Of a stretch of 64,000 bases of DNA, positions 14,321 through 37,037 are shown one piece after another (position 1 is the first letter of the stretch; each line of letters opens with the position of its first letter). Under the pieces are notes generated by a model. It made no database searches. It saw only the letters and a list, made by a program, of their open reading frames with translations, and was not told the origin of the DNA. Origin of the DNA: Bacteroidota bacterium (GTDB lineage: Bacteria; Bacteroidota; Bacteroidia; 2-12-FULL-35-15); NCBI GenBank assembly GCA_016707685.1, contig JADJHE010000003.1:5934-69933 (forward strand). The letters are read 5' to 3'. A program made the position numbers and the translations under genes.

Positions 14321-15680
14321 TTATTTTTGAATCACAATTTTTCTTGTTGCAACCCCTTCTGATCCAACTATTTTAACAAAATAAATGCCGCTGTAAAGAG
14401 TTTGAGTATCAAAAAAAGCAATTGTTTTTCCTTGATAAATGTTGCTTTTTTGAACCAACTTTCCGGTGGCATCAAACAATTCCACATTTAAGTTTTCTTT
14501 GTTAATTCCATTGATTTGTACCGCAACAAAATCATTTGCAGGATTTGGATACACATTTACTTCAAACAAATCGTTTTGAACAGTTGAAATGCTTGTTGTT
14601 GGAGCTGTGTATGTTGTTACGCTTTCTGAAATAGAAGTAACTTTTGCTGCTGTTTTTACACCATAAAATGTTGGTCCAACCGCATAAGGATAAGCAGAAT
14701 TCCAGTTTTCGTCAACCGTTGCAAAGTAGCAATAAATACCAGCAGGATATTCTGGTGTAACGCAAAAACGACCGTTATGTTCATCTAAATAATCAGACGC
14801 AATTGGTGCTGTGTATTGGTAATCTTCACGGAAATAACCCAATGGATAGGTTGCGCTTACAGCTGGTCCAGCAGTTACGCTAGCGCCCGTGTAATAAGTT
14901 GTTCTTGTTGTAATATTTCTAAGTGTCCAGCTTGATTTTATACGAACAATTCCACCAGTTCCATCGGCATTTTTAAAACCATATGCGCCATAAATTGGGA
15001 AGCCATCGTATGCAAAACCAATTAGTGGAGAGTGTTGTGTGCTATCGATAACATATAAACCATCCGCATCGTAAAGTGTACAAATGTTTGAAAGAACCGT
15101 TAAATCTAGTTTATAGGCGCTTGGGTTTTGGTGATGATGGTAGTTGCCCATTGCCGGATGTCCTTTTGAGCAATCGAATCCAGCTCTTTCTGCAACTACA
15201 GCATCTCTGTTCCAAACACCATCTCCAGTGCAAGGAGGTGCTATTGGGCCACCGCAAAGACTGCTTGTTGAGTTTTTCCAAGATACCCCATCTCTGTAAT
15301 CGAACAATGCAACACCATTTACAAAAACACCAATGTTTCCTCCTGTTGTTGCTGTTGGCGTTCCTGTGTTTTGAACAGGGTTTAAAGGAAATTTGAATAT
15401 TGCATTTTGGTCGGTTGCCAATGATGGATTGCCATCCAGAAAAGGACCTGTGGTATATGCAGGAATACCGTTTGTTGTAACATATACCGAAGAAGCCGAA
15501 GTATTGAACTGTTTGTATGTTTGCTAAAACATTATCGTTAATTGCAGTTGAGTTGCCGCTAACGTAGTGACTTCCCATTACTGTTGAATTTTGCATCCAT
15601 TCTAAAATGGCAGGGTTTGTTTGAGCGAAGCCTAATGAGCCGCCAATTAAAAATGTAAAAAGGGTGCTTTTTAATTTCAT
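14321..15680 (-). CDS. YHYH-domain protein with T9SS C-terminal sorting domain; frameshift near 15485-15500
   Basis: Signal peptide MKLKSTLFTFLIGGSLGFAQ is in ORF 15111..15680. The body (…SKGHPAMGNYHHHQNP…) and CTD (…VNVYPNPANDFVAVQI…YFVKIVGSEGVATRKIVIQK) are in ORF 14321..15421. Both frames are open across …TVQYFG / YVTTNGIPAYTTG… Its start overlaps the upstream gene's stop (ATGA). Confidence 0.6.
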
Positions 15681-16759
15681 AGTTCGTTTTTTATGATGTT
15701 GGTTAGGGTTATAGACGCTGAACTTTTTTTAATCCTTCGTTGGGTCGAAAAAAGATTTTTTGGATAGGAAAAATTTGGATTAAATAGAAAAGAGCGATCT
15801 GTTAGCGTTAATAAAAAAGCAACAATATCAACACGTTCATTTGCATTAAGGACAATCGGGTTTTGTAACTCTTTTGAAAGCGCTTGGTTGTGCAAAGCCC
15901 CTGTTGTATAGTGTTTAAGCACTTCTGATAGTTTTTTAAATCGCCCATCGTGCATGTAGGGGTAAGAAAATTCAATGTTTCGAAGACTTGGGACCTTAAA
16001 TTTTAATGAGTCTTTTGCATTTTTTGTTATTCCGAATCGTCCATAATCATTAAGTGTTGTGTCGATAGGCAATCCATTGGATTTAAATTCATTGTTTGTG
16101 AATAAGGGTTCGGTGTGACAGGAGGCGCAATTTTTTTTAAACAACAAATACCCGTTGTTTTCCTGTGATGTAAAAACAGCTTCTTTTCGCATTACACTGT
16201 CGTATTTTGAGTTGTGTGAAACAAGCGTTAGCATAAATTGCGAAAGGGCTTTTAAGGTGTGTTCTCCTGTTACTACAGAATCGCCAAAGGCTTGTAAAAA
16301 AGCGTTGGGTAGTGTTTTGAGTGTTGTAATTTTTACAACATTCGAAATGTTTTCGTCCATTTCTACAGGGTTAGCAATAGGAGCAAGGGCTTGCACGTCA
16401 AGGTGGTTTACTGCTCCATCCCACATAAAAAACTGTTGCCAGGCTAAATTTATTAAAGCGGGAGAATTTCGTGTTCCTATTTTATCCTCTATTCCATGGC
16501 TTAAAGCATGATCAACATGTGTGAATGCTGTATATTGAGAGTGGCAGCTGGCGCAGGAAACAATGTTGTTTCTTGAAAGCATAGGTTCATAAAAAAGCGT
16601 CCTTCCAAGTTCTATCGTGTTTTCGTTTAACGGGTTTTTAGAAAAATCATAAGTCGGTTTTGGCCAACCTTTTGGCACAACAAAAGGCTTTTCGGTCGCC
16701 AATTGAAAAGCAAACAAAACAAAACAAAAACAGAAAAAGAGAACTGTTTTTATTTTCAT
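15677..16759 (-). CDS. Di-haem cytochrome c peroxidase (CCP/MauG/MbnH family)
   Basis: Two CxxCH motifs (CASCHSQ, CASCHTE) and the conserved …YMHDGRFKKLSEV… region. Signal peptide present. Length 360 aa. Confidence 0.85.
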   Translation of the reverse strand: MKIKTVLFFCFCFVLFAFQLATEKPFVVPKGWPKPTYDFSKNPLNENTIELGRTLFYEPMLSRNNIVSCASCHSQYTAFTHVDHALSHGIEDKIGTRNSPALINLAWQQFFMWDGAVNHLDVQALAPIANPVEMDENISNVVKITTLKTLPNAFLQAFGDSVVTGEHTLKALSQFMLTLVSHNSKYDSVMRKEAVFTSQENNGYLLFKKNCASCHTEPLFTNNEFKSNGLPIDTTLNDYGRFGITKNAKDSLKFKVPSLRNIEFSYPYMHDGRFKKLSEVLKHYTTGALHNQALSKELQNPIVLNANERVDIVAFLLTLTDRSFLFNPNFSYPKNLFSTQRRIKKSSASITLTNIIKNEL

Positions 16760-17454
16760 GGATCAATAATTTTAAATGATTTAATCGCCTGTTCAGAAAG
16801 CAAAACTGCTGTTTTGCTGGGCGACATGATTTGGTTTAGTGTTGACAAATCAACAACAGAAAGAAATTGATTGATATCAAAAACGACAATTATTATTTTT
16901 TGATTTGTTGTTTTAAGGGTAGCCGTTTTAAGACAATTGAAAGGCGTTTGATAGCCACCCAAATGGAATTCAAAAGCATGATTTCGTGTTGGACAATTAT
17001 TGCTTTTGCCTTCTAGTTTAAAATTTATATAGCCGCTTTGCCAAGTCCAATACATTCCTTTGGTTGGATCAAGGTCGGCACCCATTGCTCCTGAAACGTT
17101 GGTAGTGCTATCTATTCCAAGGCTAAAGGAAAGTTCGTCAAAATTAATTTTGTTTGTGTTTTTAATACTAAGCGTTTGTGAATTTTTGTTGGAGGCGTCA
17201 ATCAGATGAAAGCTGTTTTTTTCTGGAAGAACAACGGTACCATTTTTTAAAAAACAAATATTGGAAACATAGAATCGAAGTGCATCAATTTGTAAATGAT
17301 TGGAATCGTTTGCAACAAAAGAAGAGTCGCTTAAATCAACGTTTTTTCCATTGTAATGAGCAACGAACGAAACCGTAATTGTTGAATCGGATTGAGCAGA
17401 AACAAATTGAATTAAACTGAAAATAAAAAAAACAACGAAGCGAAATTTCTTCAT
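16756..17454 (-). CDS. MbnP-like periplasmic protein, usual partner of MbnH-type di-haem peroxidases (putative copper-binding)
   Basis: Signal peptide, 232 aa, Trp-rich core (…KGMYWTWQSGYINFKLEG…). Translationally coupled (4-bp overlap) to the downstream peroxidase. The family assignment is from memory and needs an HMM check. Confidence 0.45.
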   Translation of the reverse strand: MKKFRFVVFFIFSLIQFVSAQSDSTITVSFVAHYNGKNVDLSDSSFVANDSNHLQIDALRFYVSNICFLKNGTVVLPEKNSFHLIDASNKNSQTLSIKNTNKINFDELSFSLGIDSTTNVSGAMGADLDPTKGMYWTWQSGYINFKLEGKSNNCPTRNHAFEFHLGGYQTPFNCLKTATLKTTNQKIIIVVFDINQFLSVVDLSTLNQIMSPSKTAVLLSEQAIKSFKIIDP

Positions 17455-17918
17455 TATTCTGGTCGTTTTGGCGGATGTGGTGGCGCAAACAGGGCTGCGA
17501 TTTCTTTGCTTAGTTTTTCAAAAGCAACCAGCTGGTCAGGCCTACACAGGTTTTTAATGTCTTGAAAATGTTTATAGTGAATTGTTTCAATGTTTTTTTG
17601 AATAACACTAATTTCATTTATCAGTGAGTCTTTTGTTGCTGCGTTAGAATCAATAAGCGTTGAATACAATTCGTTTTTTAATACAACAATTTGTTCTTGT
17701 GATTTGTCTATTTCGCTGCGATGCCAATGAATTAGCAATTCGTATTGTTTAACTTGGTTTTCATCAAAATCAAGTTTATTAATGATAATGTTTCGCGGTC
17801 CGCCATTTGGTCCCGGCCCACCATGTTTTGGTTTGTTTGATAACAAAAACCATAACAAAGTAATGTTTGCTAATAGCAAACCAACAGATAGAATACTGAG
17901 GAGTTTAACTTTATTCAT
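17454..17918 (-). CDS. Periplasmic Spy/CpxP-like (heavy-metal sensor / LTXXQ family) protein
   Basis: Signal/TM anchor, helical 154-aa protein with a proline-rich tail (…PPHPPKRPE). Coupled between the anti-sigma and MbnP-like genes. Confidence 0.45.
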   Translation of the reverse strand: MNKVKLLSILSVGLLLANITLLWFLLSNKPKHGGPGPNGGPRNIIINKLDFDENQVKQYELLIHWHRSEIDKSQEQIVVLKNELYSTLIDSNAATKDSLINEISVIQKNIETIHYKHFQDIKNLCRPDQLVAFEKLSKEIAALFAPPHPPKRPE

Positions 17919-18174
17919 GTGTATATAAATCGTTGTTTGGCATTAAGTTCATTGACTCGGCAACACTTGCAACACTGTTGTTTTGTTTTGTTTTATATAC
18001 AAGCGCTCCAGCATTAAAAACAACAATAAAAACAAAGGAAAGGCTGAGTGCGAATGCAAATTTCTTTGGCAAAACCGTTGAATAGGTCTTTTCAATTTTT
18101 TGTTGAATGCGCGTAAACAGAAAAGCAGGAGCGTCTACTGCCTGAATTTTTTTATGTAATTGATCGATGTTCAT
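17911..18174 (-). CDS. Putative anti-sigma factor (small single-TM protein)
   Basis: 87 aa, one TM helix, immediately downstream of the ECF sigma gene, overlapping the next gene by 8 bp. Confidence 0.4.
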   Translation of the reverse strand: MNIDQLHKKIQAVDAPAFLFTRIQQKIEKTYSTVLPKKFAFALSLSFVFIVVFNAGALVYKTKQNNSVASVAESMNLMPNNDLYTHE

Positions 18175-18211
18175 TTGTTTGTTATTAATGTGTTTGACGA
18201 GATTCTTTTTT

Positions 18212-18733
18212 TTATCCTTCGTTTGTGTTTAATTTTTTAGAAAGATTTGTTTTTGCTCGTTGTATTAATGATTCAATTGCCTTTGGACTCGTTTGCATTA
18301 TTTCAGCAACCTCTACCTGTGTTTTATTTTCTATTTTATGAAGTATTAGTGCCGTTTTTTGATTGTCGGGTAAGTCATTAATGTGCTTAAAAATTGCGGC
18401 AATCGATTCTTTGTCTTCTAGTAAAATGCCAGGATGATCAAATGTTGGCTGGTCGTGTTTTAAATCACTGCTGTTATCAAAAAACAGAGAGGTTAAAAAA
18501 GCGAATCGTTTTTTTCGCTGTTTAGACTTAATGTAATCGAGCGATTTGTTGATTGTAATGCGGTATATCCACGTTTTAAGGGTTGATTCTCCTTTGAATG
18601 AGGAAAAAGATTGGTGCACAGAAAGAAAAACGTCCTGCGTAATCTCTTCGGCATCCTCTGTATTTTGAACATACTGAAGCGCAAGGTTAAATACCATGCC
18701 AGCATGAATGTTGTATAATTCTTCGAATGTCAA
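18212..18733 (-). CDS. RNA polymerase ECF-type sigma-70 factor
   Basis: Sigma-70 region 2 (…DAEEITQDVFLSVHQSF…WIYRITINKSLDY…) and region 4 (…NQKTALILHKIENKTQVEVAEIM…). Confidence 0.85.
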   Translation of the reverse strand: MTFEELYNIHAGMVFNLALQYVQNTEDAEEITQDVFLSVHQSFSSFKGESTLKTWIYRITINKSLDYIKSKQRKKRFAFLTSLFFDNSSDLKHDQPTFDHPGILLEDKESIAAIFKHINDLPDNQKTALILHKIENKTQVEVAEIMQTSPKAIESLIQRAKTNLSKKLNTNEG

Positions 18734-24398: not shown

Positions 24399-24803
24399 TT
24401 ATTTTATCAGCACCCCTTTTTTATTAATGTAGGGTACCAGAATAAAATTTTCTTCTTTGATTGTTTCGGGAAGGAAAATGTATTTTTTATCATACATCAC
24501 ATTGTCTTGAAAAAAGCTAACCCAGTATTCGTTGTTTAAGCCAAAAACAGATTCGTCAATAGGTTCTATTTTAGAAAAGCTTTTTGCTTTTACAACATCT
24601 AAAAAATGACGAAGGGTTGATGTTTTTACCTCTTCTCCGTTATGTAGTCCATATCCATGCGAGGTAGACAAAACGCCTTCAATGTCTTGCTTTTTTAGAT
24701 TAATTAAATAGACATTCCAAATTTTTTCTGCAAGCTCATTCTCCTCTTGAACAACAGCAACAGCAATATCTTCAACAATAGGAGGGGCAATATCTTTTTT
24801 CAT
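24399..24803 (-). CDS. Hypothetical cytoplasmic protein (134 aa)
   Basis: No signal peptide and no recognisable motif. Immediately upstream of, and co-oriented with, the CHAP-like gene. Confidence 0.5.
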   Translation of the reverse strand: MKKDIAPPIVEDIAVAVVQEENELAEKIWNVYLINLKKQDIEGVLSTSHGYGLHNGEEVKTSTLRHFLDVVKAKSFSKIEPIDESVFGLNNEYWVSFFQDNVMYDKKYIFLPETIKEENFILVPYINKKGVLIK

Positions 24804-26089: not shown

Positions 26090-29000
26090 TTATTTAGTAA
26101 TCACTAATTTTTGAACAACATTTTTATTTTCTGTTTTAACGGTTAGGAAATATGTTCCAGCGTTAATGTTTTCAGTATTTAAAGAAACAATTTGTCCTTG
26201 TGCAACATTTTGAATTGTTGATGAAGAAACCGTTCTTCCTGTTACATCTGTAATTGAAATGATAGAACCATTTGCAATTGCAGCATCAAATCTTACGTTT
26301 ACTTGACCATTTGCAGGGTTTGGATATACTGCAATTGTGTTTTCAACTGTTGTGTTATTTATTCCTGTAACATTTCCAACAGTTGCAGTAACCGTGTCAC
26401 GAACGCTTGTACAAGCTATTGATGGTCCTTCAATTTGGATGTCGTAAAAATAGTAATAAACAGTTGTTCCTTGATTTGATCCTGTTAATGTCACATATCC
26501 ATTCAATACATATGGATAAGCCGTTCCTTGGTTGCTTCTAAATAATTTTGGAGCAACAGAACCTAAGTTTGTTTGGTTAACAGTTGTGTTTGTTGTTAAA
26601 CGATAAGCTGTTCCAACATTTAATGACCAGTTAAGCGTTACTACTGTTGTGTCTGCAGGTAAAGCAATTGACAAAGAGTTGATAACTGTTCCAACAGAAT
26701 TTTTCAATTGAATTTCACGTGTTCCAGCAACATCTGTGTATACTTTAACAGTTTTTAATGTACAAGTTCCTAATACATCAAAATCAACAGATCCATTTGT
26801 TGTAGTTGAATAGTTGTTTGTTCCTTGGAAAAATTCTGGACCAACACCATTAACTGCTCCTGGGTAGTTGAATGATTCCTCAACGAAATAATTTGTTGTT
26901 GTACTAATTACCGGTGTTGTGTAATTAGCGCCAGTAGCTAATAATGTTCCACCAACCGCTTGGTTATACCAAGTAATGTTTGAACTATTAGTACCAGTAG
27001 CGGTTAAGTTAAATGATGTTGGAGTTGCACTTGTTTGGTCAACTCCAGCAGGAGCTGGTGATGTGCTAACAGTAACAGCTGTTGGCGCAGCATTAAATGC
27101 AGCACAAGTTCCTTGAATTGTTAAGTTGTAAGTTCCAGATGTTGGAGGGTTAATAGATTGAGTCGTTGCAGTAAATCCGTTTGGACCCGTCCAAGTATAT
27201 CCAGCAGCAGCAGTACTAGAAAGTGTTAGTGTTCCTTGGCAAGTATTTGCTCCAGATTGACTAACGGTTGGTGTTTCGTCTGGGTTTAATACAACTGCTA
27301 CTGTTGGAGAAACGTTTGTACAAGCACCATTAGATACTAATACGTTAAAGTTTCCTGTTGTAGATGTTGTTACGGATTGCGTTGTTGCTCCTGTATTCCA
27401 GTTGTATGATGAAAAACCGTTATTAGCAGTCAATGTTAATGTTTGGCTAGTACACAAGTTGTATGGACCAGGGATTGTGTTGTTTGTAATACTACAAGTT
27501 CCTTCTACAGAAGAAACAAACTGATCAGCATTCAATGAACCAAAGTTTGTTGTTAAACCAGATGGCCAATCGATACGAGCAGAGTCAATTGTTGTGTTTG
27601 TTCCCAAACCAAAGTGCAAGTTAAACGAGTTAACAGTACCATAGCTTTCGCCAGCACGCACTTCACGAATTTGTGTTCCAAATGCTCCGTAGATTGTAAC
27701 ACGTGCACCAATTGCATCGTGATTACTAACTGTTCCTGTTAAAGCAAATGTAATAAAGTGGTTTGCATTTTTATTGTTTAAATACAAAACATCGTTTGTT
27801 GATCCTGGGCTGTTATAGATATCGCCATAAGAAGCGAAAATATCAGCGAATCCATCGTGATTTAAATCACCACAAGCAAATGAAACCATTCCGCCTGTTT
27901 GTGACATACCAGCGTTACCAACCAATGTAAATGTTTTGTTTCCATTGTTTTTGTATAAAACAAAGTTTGATCCAGTAACGAAAATATCTACAAATCCATC
28001 GTTATCAAAATCTTCGAAGAATGATTCGATTGGTTGTGATCCTGCGCCAGTGGTAGAGAAACCAGTTGTTGCTGTAATATCTGTAAAGTTTCCAGAGCCA
28101 TCGTTTTCAAAAATTTGACTTGCTATATCATGGTTAGTAACCATTAAATCAAAATCGCCATCATTGTCAATGTCACCGTAGCTTCCTGTCCAAGTTTGGT
28201 TAAAATCTCCCGCTTCAATTCCATGTGCAGAAGCCATATCGGTGAAGTTTCCGTTTCCATCGTTTACGAACATTCTGTCTTTTCTTCTTAAGTCAGTAAC
28301 GCTAGATGATGCTTGACGGCAATGAGCAACATAAAAATCCAAATCACCATCATTATCAAAATCTAACCAAGCGCTTCCGTAGTTACCAGAATCTGCAGGG
28401 TCGCCACCATAAGTTGCTGTGCTTATTTGGTGATTAAAAACAATGTTTGGATGTACTGACCAAGTTGGGTGTGTTCCTGATCCTACAACCGAAGTAACAT
28501 TTACAACCATAGCACCTGTTCCTGAGTTATAAGAAGTAACAGTACCTGTCATGTATTTTGTTCCATCATAACCAACCTTTACGGTTTGACCATTTGTAAA
28601 ACTTAAGCCCGTTTGTACGGTTAAACTTTTTGAACCAGTTCCAATAGTCATTGAAGTTGTTGAATGTGCTAAAAACTGTAAATTTCCAGCGCCATCATTC
28701 ATATAAACTTTAGCGTAGGCATTATCATCGCACACATATACATCATCCCATCCATCATTATTAAAATCTCCACAAGTTATATTTTGTGTAAAAAAATTAG
28801 AGTTAGATAGCGTAGTTTGTGTTTTTACAACAGCAGAACCGTTCCAAGAAAGTTTTGCTAAATAAACACTTCCATTTGGACCAGTAACAACATCTTTCCA
28901 TCCATTGTGGTCGAAGTCGGCAACAGCCATTCCCCAAACGCCAGAACCAGAAACGTTTCCAACGTTGTAAGAAGTAAAGTTGCCATTTCTAGCTTGTAAA

Positions 29001-29215
29001 TCAACCCATAGCGTTGTTGATTGATCCATACGAACGATATCATCTAATCCATCGTTGTTTACATCCACTACAGTAACACAGTTTCCACTGCGCATGCTTG
29101 TAGGGGTTAATCGAGAGTTTGAATTTGTAAATCCAAACTGTGCGTTTGCGTTTAACGCTCCAATCACAAGACCAGAGCCTAATGCAACCGTACGCATAAA
29201 AGTAAATTTATTCAT
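26090..29215 (-). CDS. FG-GAP/VCBS repeat plus ASPIC/UnbV domain protein (CRTAC1-like) with T9SS C-terminal sorting domain
   Basis: Signal peptide, repeated …DVNNDGLDDIV… / …DFDNDGDLDFYV… FG-GAP repeats and an …ARIDWPSG… ASPIC/UnbV-like segment. The C-terminus is …AVYPNPANGQVNVRF…YFLTVKTENKNVVQKLVITK. Confidence 0.8.
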   Translation of the reverse strand: MNKFTFMRTVALGSGLVIGALNANAQFGFTNSNSRLTPTSMRSGNCVTVVDVNNDGLDDIVRMDQSTTLWVDLQARNGNFTSYNVGNVSGSGVWGMAVADFDHNGWKDVVTGPNGSVYLAKLSWNGSAVVKTQTTLSNSNFFTQNITCGDFNNDGWDDVYVCDDNAYAKVYMNDGAGNLQFLAHSTTSMTIGTGSKSLTVQTGLSFTNGQTVKVGYDGTKYMTGTVTSYNSGTGAMVVNVTSVVGSGTHPTWSVHPNIVFNHQISTATYGGDPADSGNYGSAWLDFDNDGDLDFYVAHCRQASSSVTDLRRKDRMFVNDGNGNFTDMASAHGIEAGDFNQTWTGSYGDIDNDGDFDLMVTNHDIASQIFENDGSGNFTDITATTGFSTTGAGSQPIESFFEDFDNDGFVDIFVTGSNFVLYKNNGNKTFTLVGNAGMSQTGGMVSFACGDLNHDGFADIFASYGDIYNSPGSTNDVLYLNNKNANHFITFALTGTVSNHDAIGARVTIYGAFGTQIREVRAGESYGTVNSFNLHFGLGTNTTIDSARIDWPSGLTTNFGSLNADQFVSSVEGTCSITNNTIPGPYNLCTSQTLTLTANNGFSSYNWNTGATTQSVTTSTTGNFNVLVSNGACTNVSPTVAVVLNPDETPTVSQSGANTCQGTLTLSSTAAAGYTWTGPNGFTATTQSINPPTSGTYNLTIQGTCAAFNAAPTAVTVSTSPAPAGVDQTSATPTSFNLTATGTNSSNITWYNQAVGGTLLATGANYTTPVISTTTNYFVEESFNYPGAVNGVGPEFFQGTNNYSTTTNGSVDFDVLGTCTLKTVKVYTDVAGTREIQLKNSVGTVINSLSIALPADTTVVTLNWSLNVGTAYRLTTNTTVNQTNLGSVAPKLFRSNQGTAYPYVLNGYVTLTGSNQGTTVYYYFYDIQIEGPSIACTSVRDTVTATVGNVTGINNTTVENTIAVYPNPANGQVNVRFDAAIANGSIISITDVTGRTVSSSTIQNVAQGQIVSLNTENINAGTYFLTVKTENKNVVQKLVITK

Positions 29216-29284
29216 GTTGGGGTAAATAAATTGGTTAATAATTAGTTATCAATTGTTTAGAGAATACTAAAGGAAACAAAAAAA

Positions 29285-31228
29285 TTATGATTTAACAACT
29301 TTTTTGGTGATTATTTTATTTCCGGTTCTTATTTTTATGTAATAAACACCTCTTGCGTTCGGAAGGTAAAAGTTGAATTCCGATTGATAATTGGTGTTGT
29401 AAATAGCACTAACTCGCGCACCAGAAGACGAAAACACCTCAATGTTTTTAATTAATTCGCCATATTGAGCACTTATAAATACTTGGCCATCCATTGAAAT
29501 GCTTGGCCAAACGTTTATTGTATTCACAGAATTAGCTGCAATTCCAGTAACAGTGTTGTTTAAGCTATCAACTCCAACTAAAAAAGGAGTTTGGTCAGCA
29601 TTTTGAAACATTGTTTTAAAAGTGTTGATTGGTGTGCTGTTGAAAGCAAACATTTCGTCTGTATATTTTGGAGGAACAGATTGGTAATACACTTTTGCTT
29701 TTGCTTGCATGCTTCCACTAAATCCATTTAGTGGAACTCTATAGTGAACATAGTCCATTCCAGACCCCTCTACAGCATTTGTTTTATTAAAATCATCATC
29801 AGAAATTGCAGCACCAACAATTTTAACAGTATCGTAGGTGCTGTGAGCTGTTGTAAATCCTAATGGTGGAATTCTATTATCTTTTAATTGTGCGGCAGCT
29901 CTTTCTAAAACGGTTGTTACGTTTGAATTTACATCGCCCATTACCATCTCATAAATTTGAGGAACATTGTTTTGATTGATTATGTTATGATGTACTTCAA
30001 ACGGATTCGTTTCGCCAACAACACGGTAGGTGTTTGTAAATGTTCCTGATTTAAAAAGGGTGTCATTGTTTGTCCCCGTTACAATAAACTGAACAACGGC
30101 TCTGCGAGAAGGATAACCAGAAGGGAACTTGTGTCCTGTTTTGTTTTTTAGTTTCACTCTAAAATAAGCGGTATCGTTTATTGTGCTGTCTAAAAACAGG
30201 TTTATGTCAAGCGATTGAAGTTTTAACATGTTAGATGTTGCTACAAGTGTAGAGTCGAATTTGGCATCATCTGCATTTACGCCTAATGCCACCTTGTTGT
30301 TTTTAATCAAGTTGAGCATAAAATAATTTGCTCCAGCAAATGTGTGTTGATTAAAAGGAAACCTTCCCTGTAGTGAAAGAATGCCATTCGAGATAACAAT
30401 TGGTTCGTTTATTTTAGGCATGTGGCATGATTGACAAGTGGTGGTAGTTCCTGAATAGCTGGAGTTTAAATATTCGTGGTAGGTTGCTTGTTCAACAAAT
30501 TCGCCACCGGTTAAATTGCCCGACAAATCAGCCGTTTGGGTAATTAGTGTATGGCAAGAAGAACACATTCTTGCTTTGCTCACATGGTTACTAAATGTTG
30601 GAGTTATTCCTTCATACAAAACCATTGGTCCAGTAAACGGACTTCCAAATGGACCATATTCAACATGGTTTGTATCGTAAGGAATTTCTCCAGAAAAGGT
30701 TGAGCCAACACTCGGATCAATCATATGACAAGATCCACAAGCAACACCATCGAGGCCAAGCGAGTCGGTTTCTAAATCATTCATTCCATAATATTGTTGA
30801 CCATGAAACATGGCTGTATATCTTCCCATTGGCGCATGACAAGAAGTACATTTGTTTTGTAGTTCGGCAGCATGTGCAGGATTAACTAATATTTCATGAC
30901 TAACTTTCGCTCTCCATAAAGGATCTTTTGCACTAAGTGCCATCATCGATGTTTGCCAACGATCAACAAGGTTTACATCACTACCATCTTCTAATATATT
31001 TGCTTGATGAATAGAGTCGTAACCATGACAACCACTACAGTGAGAAGAGTGTAAAAAATATTCCCCAGCTTCAATTGGAGCCCTTTTAAATCGGTCTTTT
31101 AAAGCAGTTAGCTCATCTTCAGAATGAAAAGATTTTTTTGTAGTTTTTGAAGTTGCCGAGTTCAAAAAATAAAAGCCAATTGCAAAAGCAGTTAGCAATG
31201 TTATGGTGGTAATTTTTTTAATCTTCAT
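29285..31228 (-). CDS. Pentahaem c-type cytochrome with T9SS C-terminal sorting domain
   Basis: Sec signal. Five CxxCH motifs (CSGCH, CTSCH, CGSCH, CSSCH, CQSCH) lie within the first ~270 aa, then a ~380-aa haem-free region, ending in a T9SS-type tail (…GVYYIKIRTGNKIITKKVVKS). It lies 70 bp upstream of the FG-GAP/ASPIC gene. Confidence 0.8.
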   Translation of the reverse strand: MKIKKITTITLLTAFAIGFYFLNSATSKTTKKSFHSEDELTALKDRFKRAPIEAGEYFLHSSHCSGCHGYDSIHQANILEDGSDVNLVDRWQTSMMALSAKDPLWRAKVSHEILVNPAHAAELQNKCTSCHAPMGRYTAMFHGQQYYGMNDLETDSLGLDGVACGSCHMIDPSVGSTFSGEIPYDTNHVEYGPFGSPFTGPMVLYEGITPTFSNHVSKARMCSSCHTLITQTADLSGNLTGGEFVEQATYHEYLNSSYSGTTTTCQSCHMPKINEPIVISNGILSLQGRFPFNQHTFAGANYFMLNLIKNNKVALGVNADDAKFDSTLVATSNMLKLQSLDINLFLDSTINDTAYFRVKLKNKTGHKFPSGYPSRRAVVQFIVTGTNNDTLFKSGTFTNTYRVVGETNPFEVHHNIINQNNVPQIYEMVMGDVNSNVTTVLERAAAQLKDNRIPPLGFTTAHSTYDTVKIVGAAISDDDFNKTNAVEGSGMDYVHYRVPLNGFSGSMQAKAKVYYQSVPPKYTDEMFAFNSTPINTFKTMFQNADQTPFLVGVDSLNNTVTGIAANSVNTINVWPSISMDGQVFISAQYGELIKNIEVFSSSGARVSAIYNTNYQSEFNFYLPNARGVYYIKIRTGNKIITKKVVKS

Positions 31229-31317
31229 TTTAATAGGGGTATTGTGCTACTAACAAATGTAATAAAATACAATTGGAAAAGAAATTTGTTGACGAAAATC
31301 AGTTTTGGAGAAAAAAT

Positions 31318-31347
31318 AAAGCCTTCCGAACCCCTTCGGAAGGCTTT
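31318..31347. terminator. Hairpin terminator downstream of the porP/sprF-like gene
   Basis: aaaGCCTTCCGAAccccTTCGGAAGGCttt. Confidence 0.6.
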
Positions 31348-31382
31348 GCAATTAAACTAAACCCCAACCGCACTAAACAGTC

Positions 31383-32435
31383 TTAAATACGAGATTTAAA
31401 ATGTTTGTTTCCAAACATGGATGGATATACCCAACGCAAGGAGATTTCGAATCCACCTCTAGCGGAAGAAGCAACTTTTAATTTGGATAAGTTAACATCA
31501 TAACTAAATCCAATGCAGTAGTTAGAGTATTCAAATTTTGCGATAGCAATGAATGCATCTTGCAAACGGTAATATGCTCTCAACGAAAAAGCAGAAGATT
31601 TTTTTAAGCCAGTGTATTTTGAGCCCTCTTGCAAAACATATTGAAATGTCATTCCTGGATTAACCTCTGTTGTTGCACCTTGTAGAAAAACAATATAAGA
31701 CGGTTTTAGAATTAAATTACTATTTGGCATTCCAATCGAAGCATTACCATTTAAAACAATTTTCATACTTAGTCGCTCTCCTGCTCCATAAAAGGAATAA
31801 GCAGGGCGGTGAGGATGAAAAACAGCAACACCTAAGCTTATTTTTCTTGCATTATTTGCAGAAATGTATGCTTCGTCTGTACCATAATTGTATTGTAATC
31901 CAGCACCCAAATCGAACATGGTGAAGCTTCCTGGCAGACTTGATTCCCCTGTTGCAGCAGCAGCATCATAGTTTGTTCCATTGTATTGATTGCCCCATGT
32001 TAGTTTAGATGCATTCATGCTTCGTTGTCCAAAACCAGCAACAATGCCTCCCGACAAAATACTTTTATCGTTTAGATTAATCAGTCCTGCAATGGATAAG
32101 TTTACTTGGTTTGAACCAAGTGAGGCATCACCTGCTTTGTCGCTGAAAAAATCGAGGCCCAAGCCGAGGTGATGTTTTTTGTTTTTTAATAAACGTGCAT
32201 CAAAGGAAAATGCATAGGTTCGATAAGGAGAACCAATGCTTTGCCATTGATTTTTAAAATTAAGAATTGCCCTTACCTCGTGTTGAACGCCAACTGTTGC
32301 AGGGTTAAGCTGAACAGGTGTTTCATCAAACTGAGAAAAGTGGATGTCCTGAGCCGTTGTTGTATTTGCAAATGCAAAGACAGCAAAAGCCCATGTTGTA
32401 ATTTGTAAAAACGATTTTTTGTTTTTTTTGTACAT
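31383..32435 (-). CDS. PorP/SprF family T9SS outer-membrane β-barrel protein
   Basis: Signal peptide and the family N-terminal motif …AQDIHFSQFDETPVQLNPA… Length 350 aa. Positioned immediately downstream of a type-B CTD adhesin gene, as in sprB-sprF pairs. Confidence 0.8.
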   Translation of the reverse strand: MYKKNKKSFLQITTWAFAVFAFANTTTAQDIHFSQFDETPVQLNPATVGVQHEVRAILNFKNQWQSIGSPYRTYAFSFDARLLKNKKHHLGLGLDFFSDKAGDASLGSNQVNLSIAGLINLNDKSILSGGIVAGFGQRSMNASKLTWGNQYNGTNYDAAAATGESSLPGSFTMFDLGAGLQYNYGTDEAYISANNARKISLGVAVFHPHRPAYSFYGAGERLSMKIVLNGNASIGMPNSNLILKPSYIVFLQGATTEVNPGMTFQYVLQEGSKYTGLKKSSAFSLRAYYRLQDAFIAIAKFEYSNYCIGFSYDVNLSKLKVASSARGGFEISLRWVYPSMFGNKHFKSRI

Positions 32436-32545
32436 CTTAAAAAAGAGTTAGTAGTAGTTTTTTCTTTTTTGTAGTGATTTAAAAAATAACAACGCAAATT
32501 AGTTGTGTAGTTTTCATGTTGAGTGTAAGTTTATTGGTTTATAAT

Positions 32546-35500
32546 TTATTTAATTAGTGTAATGTTTCCTTGTTTTGTTACTTCTTGTCCGTTTACCATT
32601 GCTGTTAGGTAATAAACAAAAACAGCAGCATCTAATTTTTTTCCCCTGAATGTTCCATCCCAACCATATGCAGCGTCTTTTGTTTCAAATACTTTTTCTC
32701 CCCATCTATCATAGACAAAAAACTCTAAATTGGTAATACAGTTACCCATTACATAAACAAAATCGTTTTGTCCATCTTCGTTGGGCGAGAATGCGGTTGG
32801 AACAAATAGTTCCCCGCAAACAACATCTACATAAACAATAACCGTATCGCTTCCAGTGCAACCATTTTGACTAGCAGTAAGAATATAAATTGTAGTTTGT
32901 GTTGGCGATGCCAATGGGTCTTCACATGTTGTGCAGCTTAATCCTGTAGAAGGAGTCCATAAAACAGTTGCTCCAGAAGGAACAGTGCCGTTTAGTTGAG
33001 TGCTTGTTCCAGAAATAATAGTAACATCTGTTCCTGCATTAACACCAGAAAGATTTCCTGTTACACCTACCGTTCCAGAGCTTGTAGCAGTACAACCATC
33101 AACATCTGTAATGGTAACAGTATAAGTTCCTGCAGCCAATGCAGTAATTGTACTTGTAGTAGCACTAGTGCTCCACGTTGGGCTTAACACACCATTTCCG
33201 CCAGTAGCATTTACTGTTGCGGTTCCATCGCTGTTTCCGCATGTTGCAGGTGTTGTTGATACGTTTGCTGAAATAGCTGCTGGCTGTGTGATTGTAACCG
33301 TTGTAGCATTTGAACAGCCTGTTCCATCTGTAGCCGTAACAGTATATGTTCCTGCGGCAAGGTTGCTTATAGAAGCACCACTAACGCTACCCGGCATCCA
33401 GTTATAGGTAATGGTTCCTGTTCCACCAGTTGCACTTGCTGTTGCGCCCCCATTGTTTCCTCCGTTACATAAAACGTTGGTTTGTGAGGATATTGAAATA
33501 GTTGGACCGCCACTACTTGCAACAATTCCTGTTGCTGTTGCAGTACAGCCGTTTGCATCGGTAGCGGTTACTGTGTATGTTCCTGCTGATAAATTGCTAG
33601 CAGCAGCTCCACTAATGCTACCTGGCATCCAGTTGTAGGTTATTGTGCCTGTTCCGCCCGTTGCGCTTGCTGTTGCTGTTCCTGTGCTGCTTCCGCATGT
33701 GGTGGGTGTTGTTCCTGTTACTGAAACAGAAACGGCACTTGCTGGTTGGGTAATTGTAACAGTTGTTGTTCCTGCACAACTACCTCCATCGGTAGCGGTT
33801 ACTGTGTATGTTCCTGCGGCTAATCCTGTTTGCGATGCACCAGTTAAGCTACCCGGCATCCAATTGTAATTTATAGTTCCCGTTCCTCCTGTTGCCGTAG
33901 CAGTTGCTGCACCTGTATTTTGACCGAAACAAAGAATATTTGTTTGTGAACTAATGCTAGCCGTTGGACCTCCAGTATTAGAAATAGAGACTGTTGTTGT
34001 TGCAGTACACCCGTTTCCATCTGTGCTAGTTACAGTGTAAGTTCCTGAAGCTAATGCAGATTGTGATGCTCCTGTTAAGCTACCTGGCATCCAGTTGTAA
34101 GCAATGGTTCCTGTTCCGCCAGTTCCGTTGGCAGTAGCAGCACCATTGTTACTTCCGCAACTTGCTGGTGTGCTGCTTGAAATAGAAACTGCAACAGCAG
34201 ATGCAGGTTGAGTAATTGTTATGGTTGTGGTTCCTGTACAACTGTTTGCGTCTGTTGCAGTAACGGTGTATGTTCCAGCGGCTAAACCTGTTTGAGAAGC
34301 CCCTGTTAAACTTCCTGGCATCCAATTGTACGTATATGCTGTTGTACTACCAGATGCACTTGCCGTTGCCGTTCCTGTACTTTGTCCGAAACACAAAACA
34401 TTTGTTTTAGCGGGGTTGGTAACGGTGATTGTAGGACAAACAGTAGCGTTACAAGCAGGAATACCAGTAAGGGTTGTAATTGTAAGAATACTTCCTGCGT
34501 TGTCTGTTACTTGAATTGGTTGAGCAGGAAAAGATGCTGGTAGGGTTCCTGAGTTTGTTGTTGATGAAAATGTTGTCCAGAATGCAGGTGTATTACATGT
34601 AGTAGCTGGTAAGCTGTTTACTAAACAAATGTTTACAAAAGGAGTCCAAGACCCGCCACAAGCAGTACATTGAGCCGAATTGGTTATTGGCGAGCTAGAT
34701 GCCGGGGTGAAAAATTGCCAGTTGTATGGGTTTACACCATTTGAAACCGTTAATGATCCATTTGTTTCTTGACAAACAGAAAGAGCAACACAGGGTGAAA
34801 CAACAATTGTAATCGATTCGTTTCCACAAGCAAGTGTGTAGCTAATAGTATGTGTTCCAACACCAGCAGTAGCTGGATTGAAAAGTCCCGTTGTTGGATT
34901 TACTCCAGGTCCACTAAAAGTTCCGCCAGGTGTTGCTACAACAAGCGTAACAGGTGTTGCATTTTGACATAATACACCTGGATTACAAATGGTAGCATCA
35001 CAACAAATTAATGATAATGGAGCAGCAGCAGTCATGTTCACAACCTGAACCGTTCCAGTTCTTGCTCCAGTAGTTGTAGAGGTGCCTGTTGATCCACAAG
35101 CAACAACATCACCACCAGAAATAACATGAACATCATAAACTCTGTAAGTTGTAGCTACGGATGAAATAACATTTAAGTTGCCATCGTATTTTACAATTGC
35201 GTTCCCAGAACCAACGTAAACGTTTCCAGAAGCGTCAATATCTAAACCGCTATTTTGAACTTGGCTTCCACCAAACCCGCCACCAGCGATAGCAGCAGTA
35301 GCAATTATTGCCCCTGTTGCAAAGTCGCGCTTGTGTACTTGATTTCCTTTGTGAGTGTATAAAAAGCCATTAAAATACCTTATGGCCATAATTCCGGAGT
35401 TATCTTTTCTCCAGTTTTCACATTTGTATCCTAATCCATAGGAGTTTGTAGTGTGGAATGCTGCAGAAGATCCAGAAGGGCAAAGACTAAAGTTTTGAGA

Positions 35501-36862
35501 AATATACCCAATTGAATCGTGTGTTAAATAAGCAAACTTACCATTGCCACATGCTGCTATAGATCTAACTTCCTGTGTTGGGAAAAGCTGTCCACCTGTA
35601 ACCTGAACACTAGCGGTAATATTTCCACTATTTACGTCCACATCGTAGATATAAGGCAATGGCGGCAAAAATCCACCTGTTCCACCAATAACCAATTTAG
35701 ATTGGTCGCAGTTAAAAGAGATGTTCCAAAACTCGGTCGATGTAAAAATACCGCCAGGACTTCCATTGTTCCAAACTACTGCACCAGCATTGTTTACTTT
35801 TACAATTGCAGCAGCCGAGCCTTGTGTAACATAAGAGTTTCCAAGATTGTCAGTAGCAAATGTTCCTAACCATGCAGAGGTGTCGTATGGGGTATTGTAG
35901 GTCCACTGAAGTGCACCAGTTGAATTATATTTTATCAGCTGCATTGGTGTAACACCTCCAATGATATAAATGTTCCCTGCTCCATCTTTTTCACACTCCC
36001 AAACACAATCCCAAGCAGTTGCAAAGTTTGGTGTTTGTGTCCACGGATCAATAATTACCGTTTGTGTATTATCGTATTTACCCAATGTAAAAGAAACGAT
36101 ATTCCCCTTTTTTGTAAAACGAGAAGAAATAATTGACTTTTTATTGTTTCCGTAAAATGTTAATGGTGCATGATCAACAATATCTCCATATTTTGTTGGG
36201 ATATGGATTGCTTTTTCTATTATCGAAGGATTTTTAGAATAAGCCATTTTAATTTTTGACGCATCAGCTCCAGGGTGAAGAATAAAGGCATACTTAATAC
36301 CCGATTCAGAGTGAAAGGTGTATTCTACATCTATATTTGGATACAGATTTTTATAAGTTATTTTTTTATATGCTTTTACATGATCAACACTTTTGTTTAC
36401 TCCGTTTTCTTTGAATGAATAAGAGTGATAGTCGGGCGTTTCTTCTTCTGCTACAATCTGAACAGCAGGATTTGCATCCACCCAGTTCATTGGAATTACA
36501 TCCGTAGAGTATTCAACTTTTCTTCCCTCGTCTTCAAATTCTTTAAACTCCTCAGCACTTGTAAAACCCTTTATTTTTCTTTCTTGACGCTCTTCTTTGT
36601 TCGTCTCTTTTTGCCAAACATTTAAAAAGCTGTATACTAAACCTTTTTTAGTAAAGTAAATTTTTGTAGATCCATGATCCATTGCAAACGCAACTGTTTC
36701 TTGGCTTCCATCGATTTGAAACTGTCCTTTGTTTTCAATAAAAGCTTTTGTTTTATCGTATTTAGCAGTCCATTTTGCTAAGGCGCTGTTTTGTGCTTTT
36801 GCGCTGATTGCGAATGTAAAAACAAAAAGAAGTTTGAATATAAAATTAGGTCTTAGTCCCAT
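32546..36862 (-). CDS. SprB-like cell-surface repeat adhesin with gliding-motility-associated (type B) T9SS C-terminal domain
   Basis: Signal peptide MGLRPNFIFKLLFVFTFAISAKAQ. At least five tandem ~77-aa SprB-type repeats (…GTGTITYNWMPGSLTGASQ…GTYTVTATD…). C-terminal …FSPNEDGQNDFVYVMG…YDRWGEKVFE… is the type-B CTD hallmark. Confidence 0.8.
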   Translation of the reverse strand: MGLRPNFIFKLLFVFTFAISAKAQNSALAKWTAKYDKTKAFIENKGQFQIDGSQETVAFAMDHGSTKIYFTKKGLVYSFLNVWQKETNKEERQERKIKGFTSAEEFKEFEDEGRKVEYSTDVIPMNWVDANPAVQIVAEEETPDYHSYSFKENGVNKSVDHVKAYKKITYKNLYPNIDVEYTFHSESGIKYAFILHPGADASKIKMAYSKNPSIIEKAIHIPTKYGDIVDHAPLTFYGNNKKSIISSRFTKKGNIVSFTLGKYDNTQTVIIDPWTQTPNFATAWDCVWECEKDGAGNIYIIGGVTPMQLIKYNSTGALQWTYNTPYDTSAWLGTFATDNLGNSYVTQGSAAAIVKVNNAGAVVWNNGSPGGIFTSTEFWNISFNCDQSKLVIGGTGGFLPPLPYIYDVDVNSGNITASVQVTGGQLFPTQEVRSIAACGNGKFAYLTHDSIGYISQNFSLCPSGSSAAFHTTNSYGLGYKCENWRKDNSGIMAIRYFNGFLYTHKGNQVHKRDFATGAIIATAAIAGGGFGGSQVQNSGLDIDASGNVYVGSGNAIVKYDGNLNVISSVATTYRVYDVHVISGGDVVACGSTGTSTTTGARTGTVQVVNMTAAAPLSLICCDATICNPGVLCQNATPVTLVVATPGGTFSGPGVNPTTGLFNPATAGVGTHTISYTLACGNESITIVVSPCVALSVCQETNGSLTVSNGVNPYNWQFFTPASSSPITNSAQCTACGGSWTPFVNICLVNSLPATTCNTPAFWTTFSSTTNSGTLPASFPAQPIQVTDNAGSILTITTLTGIPACNATVCPTITVTNPAKTNVLCFGQSTGTATASASGSTTAYTYNWMPGSLTGASQTGLAAGTYTVTATDANSCTGTTTITITQPASAVAVSISSSTPASCGSNNGAATANGTGGTGTIAYNWMPGSLTGASQSALASGTYTVTSTDGNGCTATTTVSISNTGGPTASISSQTNILCFGQNTGAATATATGGTGTINYNWMPGSLTGASQTGLAAGTYTVTATDGGSCAGTTTVTITQPASAVSVSVTGTTPTTCGSSTGTATASATGGTGTITYNWMPGSISGAAASNLSAGTYTVTATDANGCTATATGIVASSGGPTISISSQTNVLCNGGNNGGATASATGGTGTITYNWMPGSVSGASISNLAAGTYTVTATDGTGCSNATTVTITQPAAISANVSTTPATCGNSDGTATVNATGGNGVLSPTWSTSATTSTITALAAGTYTVTITDVDGCTATSSGTVGVTGNLSGVNAGTDVTIISGTSTQLNGTVPSGATVLWTPSTGLSCTTCEDPLASPTQTTIYILTASQNGCTGSDTVIVYVDVVCGELFVPTAFSPNEDGQNDFVYVMGNCITNLEFFVYDRWGEKVFETKDAAYGWDGTFRGKKLDAAVFVYYLTAMVNGQEVTKQGNITLIK
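33160..34545. repeat. Intragenic tandem DNA repeats, period 231 bp, at least five or six units (SprB-type protein repeats)
   Basis: cctggcatccaRttgta recurs at 33389, 33620, 33851, 34082 and 34313 at exactly 231-bp spacing. Plus-strand shadow ORFs 33168/33411/33645 repeat the same peptide (…PGIQL). Confidence 0.75.
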
Positions 36863-37037
36863 GCGTTTTTTGTTGAGTGTAAATATTATCCAACTCAAAA
36901 ATAAATTAGAAAAACAGTATCCAATAAAAAAATCCAAACATTATTGGAAGTCTGATATGTACCATTTAAAAATAAATCCTATATTTATCAGTATGTTTAT
37001 TATACAAAAACGATTTTATTATTATAAATGAGTAGCC

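Follow-up and report, generated by a model that had tools for sequence, protein, structure and literature searches.

The adjacent minus-strand genes at positions 26090–31228 of a 64,000-nucleotide stretch of Bacteroidota DNA (GenBank assembly GCA_016707685.1, contig JADJHE010000003.1, positions 5,934 to 69,933; hereafter, the window) encode a pentahaem c-type cytochrome and a CRTAC1-like protein that combines FG-GAP repeats with an UnbV_ASPIC domain (hereafter, the ASPIC protein). Judging from the signals in the surrounding DNA, these genes most likely constitute a two-gene operon with a promoter-like element and a terminator of its own. Both proteins carry a C-terminal domain (CTD) typical of type IX secretion (T9SS) and are predicted to be exported to the cell surface by this route. 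The hypothesis that we favor, with modest confidence, is that the pair is a co-transcribed operon of two T9SS cargoes that work together as an extracellular redox module. Each of the two proteins comes from a known family; what is new is their conserved pairing, the T9SS tag on a cytochrome of the PHC family and the make-up of its active site. A literature search, with most subscription journals outside its range, retrieved no paper describing the pair, no paper linking the T9SS with multihaem cytochromes, and nothing relevant on ASPIC/UnbV proteins in connection with a cytochrome.

Structure and conservation of the gene pair

An ORF scan shows that four minus-strand genes fill the region 26090–36937, with gaps of 110, 154 and 69 bp between them. 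These genes encode, in the order of transcription, an SprB-like adhesin (32546..36937), a PorP/SprF-family outer-membrane protein (31383..32435), the cytochrome (29285..31228, 647 aa) and the ASPIC protein (26090..29215, 1041 aa). The initial annotation of this region reported four co-oriented, closely spaced genes with these domains, and both the arrangement and every domain assignment are borne out, the latter by Pfam and NCBIfam.

A terminator scan over 23.5–38 kb, in which folding energies were compared with those of shuffled sequences (z-scores), identifies two strong intrinsic-terminator hairpins on the minus strand, the same two that had been noticed earlier after porP/sprF and at the end of the array. 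The first one (31347–31318) consists of a 13-bp stem followed by a T-run and has a folding energy of -20.8 kcal/mol (z = -4.3; none of 200 shuffled sequences folds as well), and the second one (26074–26041), located after the ASPIC gene, consists of a 15-bp stem followed by a T-run, with an energy of -25.6 kcal/mol (z = -9.2). All other hairpin candidates in this region have stems of only 5–6 bp. The 69-nt spacer between the cytochrome and ASPIC genes (29216..29284, minus strand) contains no hairpin and shows no stable folding (-2.8 kcal/mol, z = -0.33). Between the first hairpin and the cytochrome gene, at a distance of 33 nt from the ATG codon, the minus strand carries the promoter-like motif TACATTTG (31254..31261), which matches TAnnTTTG, the consensus of the Bacteroidetes -7 promoter element. 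The TAnnTTTG motif is present within 150 nt upstream of the cytochrome gene in 27 of 78 homologous loci, with a peak (14 loci) at 30–39 nt; it occurs in 5 of 59 cytochrome–ASPIC spacers and is missing from the spacer in the window. These spacers have a median length of 59 bp (range 0–172, n = 59 pairs). Co-transcription of the two genes is suggested by the flanking terminators, the unstructured spacer and the distribution of the promoter motif taken together.

Conservation of the pair was analyzed in 90 loci encoding cytochrome homologues with 44–94% identity, which came from genome and metagenome contigs as well as from exact look-ups and in which the neighbors were identified by a tblastn census; the scan of genome contigs with peptides of the window protein reached almost exclusively close relatives (five of six loci with 72–94% identity, and one with 44%). 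In 65 of the 90 loci, an ASPIC homologue is encoded directly downstream on the same strand, and in two more (L071 and L078), a full-length ASPIC gene is located approximately 0.4–0.5 kb downstream in the convergent orientation (Pfam confirms this for L071). In L062, the sole ASPIC match is located upstream of the cytochrome, is weak and partial, and was not scored as adjacent. Given that 11 loci ended too soon for the ASPIC neighbor to be judged, 79 loci are informative, and the two genes are adjacent in 67 of these (about 85%), at 44–94% cytochrome identity. The genes flanking the pair belong to at least 22 families upstream (38 loci) and at least 23 families downstream (34 loci), the largest of the upstream groups being inflated by proteins that share only a CTD. 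Thus, the synteny check proposed in the initial annotation came out in favor of the linkage, with adjacency maintained amid widely differing neighbors. The idea of a co-transcribed two-component surface module accordingly stands as regards the adjacency, the short spacers and the scarcity of the promoter motif within them; its original framing as part of an all-in-one four-gene array does not.

The search from the ASPIC side gives a similar picture. The best 120 ASPIC homologues all share the FG-GAP/UnbV/Ig_7/CTD architecture and are 950–1060 aa long. For approximately 39 of the 81 homologues located on contigs of at least 10 kb, comparison of the tables shows a contig equal in size to that of a top cytochrome match; in one case, the cytochrome and the ASPIC protein have consecutive locus tags (K0Q95_2941 and K0Q95_2942), and a look-up of the ASPIC homologue P0411 revealed a cytochrome gene directly upstream. 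The identities among the cytochromes and those among their ASPIC partners rise and fall together (r = 0.92 for 43 complete pairs), which is compatible with inheritance as a unit and is no proof of interaction. The linkage of the two genes is strong without being absolute, and their pairing characterizes the Bacteroidota clade.

The two proteins might, alternatively, be functionally independent T9SS cargoes that are kept together by shared regulation or by chance inheritance as a block. Orphan cytochromes and an orphan ASPIC gene do exist, T9SS cargo genes commonly cluster, and the observed co-variation would be expected of any two vertically inherited genes. However, the two genes remain adjacent, in the same order and orientation, at identities as low as 44% and amid changing surroundings, the spacers are short and nearly free of promoter motifs, and the partners all belong to one specific ASPIC architecture rather than being arbitrary FG-GAP proteins, so that independence of the two cargoes appears unlikely. 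Altogether, there is good reason to believe that the cytochrome and ASPIC genes are functionally linked.

The SprB-like adhesin and PorP/SprF

The SprB-like protein consists of a DUF7948 domain, six SprB repeats and a CHU_C/TIGR04131 type-B CTD (49.4 bits against a cutoff of 35), with the sequence FSPNEDGQNDF at residue ~1383. Its listed TTG start at 36937 is doubtful, and translation probably begins at Met26 (~36862), where a signal-peptide-like N-terminus starts. The next gene, located 110 bp further on the same strand, encodes a PorP/SprF-family protein (TIGR03519, 162.5 bits against a cutoff of 90.55), in agreement with the earlier assignment of a porP/sprF partner directly 3' of the type-B adhesin. 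A type-B CTD cargo followed by a PorP/SprF gene is the arrangement of SprB/SprF-type pairs; the genes at 32546–36937 and 31383–32435 fit this pattern exactly and show nothing unusual.

The initial annotation regarded all four genes as a single T9SS cargo array. A functional version of this view, in which the SprB-like protein and PorP/SprF serve the cytochrome and the ASPIC protein, for example, by moving or docking them on a surface, could draw on the co-orientation and tight spacing of the four genes in the window and six close relatives. The arrangement does not hold up as a single unit because a strong terminator followed by a promoter-like motif separates porP from the cytochrome gene, and because the SprB/PorP neighborhood is limited to the closest relatives. 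The SprB-like and PorP genes adjoin the cytochrome gene only in six loci with at least 86% cytochrome identity (L001, L002, L005 and L011–L013), and are not found upstream of it at 82% (L004), at 72% (L003) or in any more distant locus; apparent linkage in the distant loci L028 and L057 was discarded once the matches turned out to be CTD-to-CTD only. Moreover, both the cytochrome and the ASPIC protein have type-A CTDs, and, to our knowledge, type-A cargo needs no PorP/SprF-like partner. The four genes are thus two units rather than one array, the SprB-like/PorP genes being a separate, ordinary unit that neighbors the conserved pair without being part of it, and a joint function of all four is quite improbable.

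The pentahaem cytochrome

The cytochrome contains a signal peptide, one helical N-terminal domain that accommodates exactly five CxxCH motifs (C64–H68, C127–H131, C164–H168, C222–H226 and C265–H269; 30422..31039, minus strand), an enlarged Ig-like domain and a type-A CTD (29291..29476, minus strand). The five CxxCH motifs are invariant in 110 of 110 family members. The CTD is recognized by TIGR04183 (33.6 bits against a cutoff of 23) and matches the solved T9SS CTDs 8glk_D and 8gl8_D; the Pfam Por_Secre_tail match is below the cutoff (20 versus 27). The ASPIC protein likewise combines a signal peptide with a type-A CTD, so that both proteins have the features of type-A cargo.

A search of the PDB started with the single cytochrome sequence yields no match. 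By contrast, the family profile matches Thermochromatium tepidum cytochrome c552 (5ZE8) better than any other sequence, over three colinear stretches (E = 6.6e-6), along with a marginal match to MccSep/ExtKL of Geobacter (E = 1.4) that agrees with a weak ExtKL match in the NCBIfam scan. An AlphaFold2 model of the cytochrome, built without haems from a 110-sequence alignment reaching down to 30% identity, has a pLDDT of 94.8 and a pTM of 0.92; it replaced a first model (31-sequence alignment, pLDDT 57), for which 5ZE8 was already the top match. A Foldseek search started with the later model finds 5ZE8 as the sole significant match in the PDB (E = 2.6e-17, TM 0.70 normalised to the target). By this match, the cytochrome has the fold of the PHC family, in which a haem "cap" is combined with an Ig-like beta-sandwich "stem" at the C-terminus. 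The cytochrome is thus a distant, enlarged member of the pentahaem PHC family that includes T. tepidum c552 and Geobacter MccSep/ExtKL. The initial description as a multihaem cytochrome is too loose, given that the protein belongs to the pentahaem c552/MccSep family, in which the characterized member is an enzyme. Accordingly, the cytochrome need not be a passive electron carrier at the surface.

Members of the PHC family are divided into "small" forms that resemble ExtKL and "large" ones that resemble GSU2801, and a structural link has been drawn between c552, together with the family, and AvECN, a cytochrome nanowire of archaea (PMC11976967). In line with the latter connection and the predicted extracellular location of both proteins, the cytochrome could be imagined to polymerise into a conductive extracellular filament like AvECN, with the ASPIC protein as its anchor or nucleator. 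In size, however, the cytochrome far exceeds the subunits of the nanowire, and the presence of a CTD implies that monomers are attached to the surface or released, which makes a filament very improbable.

The characterized enzyme, MccSep, is a polysulfide reductase in which haem 2 is ligated by Cys239 and which uses Sec325 (bioRxiv 10.1101/2025.11.18.688581). An invariant loop in the Ig-like domain of the window cytochrome, GHKFPSGYPSRR (residues 365–376; 30101..30136, minus strand), aligns with the MccSep sequence GHSIPDG-U325-PTPNR, such that Tyr372 falls on the selenocysteine position. The loop residues H366, P369, P373 and R375 are conserved in all 110 sequences of the family. At position 372, these sequences have Tyr (64), Phe (29), Ile (14), His (2) or Leu (1), and neither Sec nor Cys. 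Tyr372 is invariant in the close clade; its candidacy as a catalytic residue of the family as a whole was rejected given the alternation of Tyr, Phe and Ile. The segment between haems 4 and 5 (TGGEFVEQATYHEY), which aligns only weakly with the region of MccSep Cys239, contains no Cys, and its E246 and Q247 are invariant. The MccSep equivalog NF040886 scores 19.7 bits with the cytochrome, against a cutoff of 250. Fold and haem pattern place the protein in the family, but, with the equivalents of Sec325 and Cys239 missing, it is not an enzyme of the MccSep type. Conserved candidates for the sixth haem ligands are H215, H295, H366, H413, M96 and M202, with M96 aligned to a His of c552.

These comparisons bear on the possibility that the pair is a respiratory terminal reductase of sulfur or polysulfide, Fe(III) or humics, with the ASPIC propeller holding the cell or the enzyme on the insoluble acceptor. 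The only characterized enzyme of the family, MccSep/ExtKL, is required for sulfur respiration (bioRxiv 10.1101/2025.11.18.688581), the cytochrome shares with it the fold and the GH-x-x-P-x-G-x-P motif, and both proteins of the pair are predicted to reside at the surface. Nevertheless, the catalytic pair of MccSep is missing (Tyr, Phe or Ile in place of Sec325, and the invariant Glu-Gln at the weakly aligned Cys239), and the carriers are mostly metagenome-assembled genomes (MAGs) of Bacteroidia from lakes, soil and wastewater, for which an aerobic lifestyle is inferred. Furthermore, neither the window nor any of the flanks examined encodes a porin-cytochrome or another electron conduit of the outer membrane, and for this reason a self-contained oxidoreductase is favored over a respiratory outlet, which we rate as a minor possibility.

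In a search with a cytochrome profile from which the CTD is excluded, 3494 cluster representatives (clustering at 50% identity) score E <= 1e-3, and 760 score E <= 1e-30. The CTD-bearing clade comes under names such as Saprospiraceae, Flavobacteriales and Bacteroidia MAGs, the nearest relative of the window cytochrome (94%) being encoded in a Lake Mendota MAG; more distant family members lack the T9SS CTD. In three of the 50%-identity clusters (P0183, P0239 and P0240), an N-terminal PQQ glucose/sorbosone-dehydrogenase propeller is fused to the pentahaem module; one of these clusters is represented in several Phycisphaerae MAGs (Planctomycetota), where it is annotated simply as "PQQ-dependent sugar dehydrogenase". 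Other fusions of the module involve Calx-beta, PKD, He_PIG, DUF642 with a dockerin, and a monohaem cytochrome. In these domain combinations, the pentahaem module is the integral cytochrome of a propeller dehydrogenase or forms part of extracellular proteins. The PQQ-propeller fusions support the interpretation that the module is a propeller protein's partner in electron transfer.

The FG-GAP/UnbV-ASPIC partner

The ASPIC protein has the architecture of the CRTAC1/ASPIC-UnbV family, with six FG-GAP_3 repeats (142.8 bits), an UnbV_ASPIC domain (67.9 bits against 23.4) and Ig_7. In the order of the polypeptide (all on the minus strand), it consists of a propeller with seven DxDxDG-type calcium-binding motifs (about 27731–29098), the UnbV_ASPIC domain (27515–27715), Cys-containing Ig-like domains (about 26873–27508), an unannotated conserved region of ~150 aa (residues ~785–940, about 26396–26863) and the type-A CTD (26099–26329; TIGR04183, 45 bits against a cutoff of 23). 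The unannotated region, which is located between the Ig-like domains and the CTD, includes a Tyr-Pro-Tyr motif and two conserved Cys residues; it has no match in Pfam or the PDB, and a database search with it returned only five fragments. The ASPIC partners fall into two length classes, 941–973 aa and 1020–1046 aa. A Gly/Thr/Val-rich insertion of ~75 aa in the propeller (window ~28420–28650, residues ~190–265), found in some partners only, is confined to the longer class.

The initial annotation stated that ASPIC/UnbV proteins have no established function in bacteria, and the literature search indeed turned up no paper that assigns them one. A partner gene that is kept across deep divergence gives this large bacterial ASPIC/CRTAC1 family, which lacks an assigned function, a testable hypothesis, namely a redox partnership at the cell surface.

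Proposed function of the pair

Under the hypothesis of an extracellular redox module, both proteins would cross the inner membrane via Sec, the cytochrome would acquire its five covalent haems in the periplasm, and the T9SS would then move both proteins across the outer membrane by means of their type-A CTDs, after which they would be attached to the surface or released. Sec export, cytochrome c maturation and the handling of type-A cargo by the T9SS are established biology. Outside the cell, the cytochrome would be the electron-carrying and possibly catalytic component, and the calcium-binding FG-GAP/UnbV-ASPIC propeller on its Ig-like stalk would be the partner that binds or converts the substrate, so that the two together would form a self-contained extracellular oxidoreductase module.

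Several observations weigh against this interpretation. The loci that were compared are phylogenetically non-independent, and some are near-duplicates. Approximately 11 loci, nearly all with 44–52% identity, have room for a partner gene and still encode an orphan cytochrome; on the other side, the look-up of the ASPIC homologue P0401 found no adjoining cytochrome gene. Family members outside the CTD-bearing clade have no ASPIC neighbor in the loci examined, and no fusion of an FG-GAP protein with the cytochrome was detected among the 19 long representatives scanned. We know of no cofactor or catalytic activity of FG-GAP/ASPIC proteins. Finally, the conserved candidate ligands could fill all five haems, in which case the cytochrome would be a pure electron carrier without an open catalytic site.

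A more specific proposal assigns the chemistry to the partner: the FG-GAP/UnbV-ASPIC propeller itself would be a redox-active or substrate-presenting subunit of an enzyme, and the secreted pentahaem cytochrome would be its dedicated electron partner. We regard this proposal as speculative and rather doubtful; if it is correct, aerobic Bacteroidota deploy a two-protein extracellular oxidoreductase analogous to quinohaemoprotein dehydrogenases, and there would be a first functional handle on the CRTAC1/ASPIC family, its animal members included.

With regard to the redox module in general, the pair extends the pentahaem c552/MccSep family, previously discussed in connection with sulfur respiration and conduction in cable bacteria, to predicted extracellular proteins of another phylum, and brings with it a different active-site make-up. 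The cytochrome family has thousands of members in Bacteroidota from lakes, soil and wastewater. Should the pair oxidise or reduce an external substrate, it would give abundant heterotrophs of oxic waters a new way of interacting with iron, humic matter, peroxide or polymers.

Neighboring genes

At 14321–18733 of the window (minus strand), there is another cluster concerned with extracytoplasmic haem and copper proteins, which consists of genes for an ECF sigma factor, a 154-aa protein without assigned function, an MbnP-like protein, an MbnH/MauG-like di-haem peroxidase and a YHYH protein with a type-A CTD. The MbnH/MbnP cluster comes directly after the cassette region in L002 and L005; its linkage to the pair was dismissed as a general feature given that these are the only two such loci. 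In L025, L028, L042 and L059, a gene for a di-haem cytochrome c peroxidase (CCP/MauG family) is located ~0.3–5 kb from the cytochrome gene, and AhpC-TSA/Redoxin genes adjoin the cytochrome gene in the P0411 locus and in L098. These neighbors may hint at peroxide chemistry or else may serve as thiol reductants for cytochrome maturation.

The plus-strand segment 18963–23809, which lies between a CHAP-domain gene and an ECF sigma factor gene, encodes a Reg_prop/Y_Y_Y histidine kinase, a response regulator and a 326-aa protein without assigned function. In L002 and L005, the CHAP-domain and ECF sigma genes are adjacent, which indicates an insertion or deletion of ~5 kb at this site. A Reg_prop/Y_Y_Y kinase is encoded near the pairs of the window and of the P0411 locus; a linked two-component sensor was considered and rejected, no homologue of the window kinase being found in the other loci. 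The minus-strand gene at 24399–24803 encodes a 134-aa protein whose sole domain match, to DUF4909, is below threshold. Its counterparts in L012 and L003 are 100% and 73% identical to it, respectively; in L003, the gene is located ~4 kb upstream of the cytochrome gene on the other strand. At the 3' side of the array, the listed ATG of a beta-lactamase-family ORF (26056) sits within the terminator hairpin, and the true start is probably Met21 (~25996).

Comparison with known systems

The closest structural relative, T. tepidum c552 (5ZE8), resembles the window cytochrome in the presence of five CxxCH motifs in the same order, the N-terminal helical haem domain and an Ig-like domain at the C-terminus. 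The sequence identity between the two is ~14%, and the core of the window protein is larger (~540 aa versus ~385–435 aa), with a much elaborated C-terminal half. Furthermore, c552 is periplasmic whereas the window cytochrome, with its T9SS CTD, is predicted to be extracellular, and only the latter comes with an ASPIC partner gene of its own. No function has been assigned to c552 itself (PMC11976967).

MccSep/ExtKL (GSU2937–2936; PDB 9WT8) belongs to the same pentahaem-plus-Ig-like family and shares the GH-x-x-P-x-G-[U/Y]-P-x-x-R loop; it differs in that the window cytochrome has Tyr372 at position 325 and no Cys at the weakly aligned Cys239. MccSep is a periplasmic protein of Desulfobacterota and Nitrospirota, as opposed to the Bacteroidota origin of the window cytochrome. 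The lPHC proteins (GSU2801 and lPHCtX of cable bacteria), as described, have a larger pentahaem domain, and their size class fits the window cytochrome (PMC11976967). They are periplasmic, some of them are fused to truncated haemoglobins, and there is no report of an lPHC that has a T9SS CTD or is paired with an ASPIC protein.

The ASPIC protein resembles CRTAC1/ASPIC-UnbV proteins in having FG-GAP_3 repeats with DxDxDG calcium-binding motifs followed by UnbV_ASPIC, and differs from these by the addition of two to three Ig-like domains, the ~150-aa region and the type-A CTD, as well as by the link to a cytochrome gene. The pair as a whole is reminiscent of the quinohaemoprotein-type fusions, in Phycisphaerae and two other clusters, in which the pentahaem module is fused C-terminally to a GSDH-family propeller; the propeller in the window is of the FG-GAP/ASPIC type, has no known cofactor and is a separate polypeptide. 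A further parallel comes from clusters encoding hydrazine synthase homologues in Planctomycetota and other bacteria, where CRTAC1-family FG-GAP genes are embedded between genes for extracytoplasmic c-haem proteins (PMC12758564). The haem proteins in these clusters (homologues of hydrazine synthase alpha and beta-gamma subunits) are unrelated to the window cytochrome, come from other phyla and show no involvement of the T9SS. These clusters are an independent case of association between FG-GAP and c-haem proteins.

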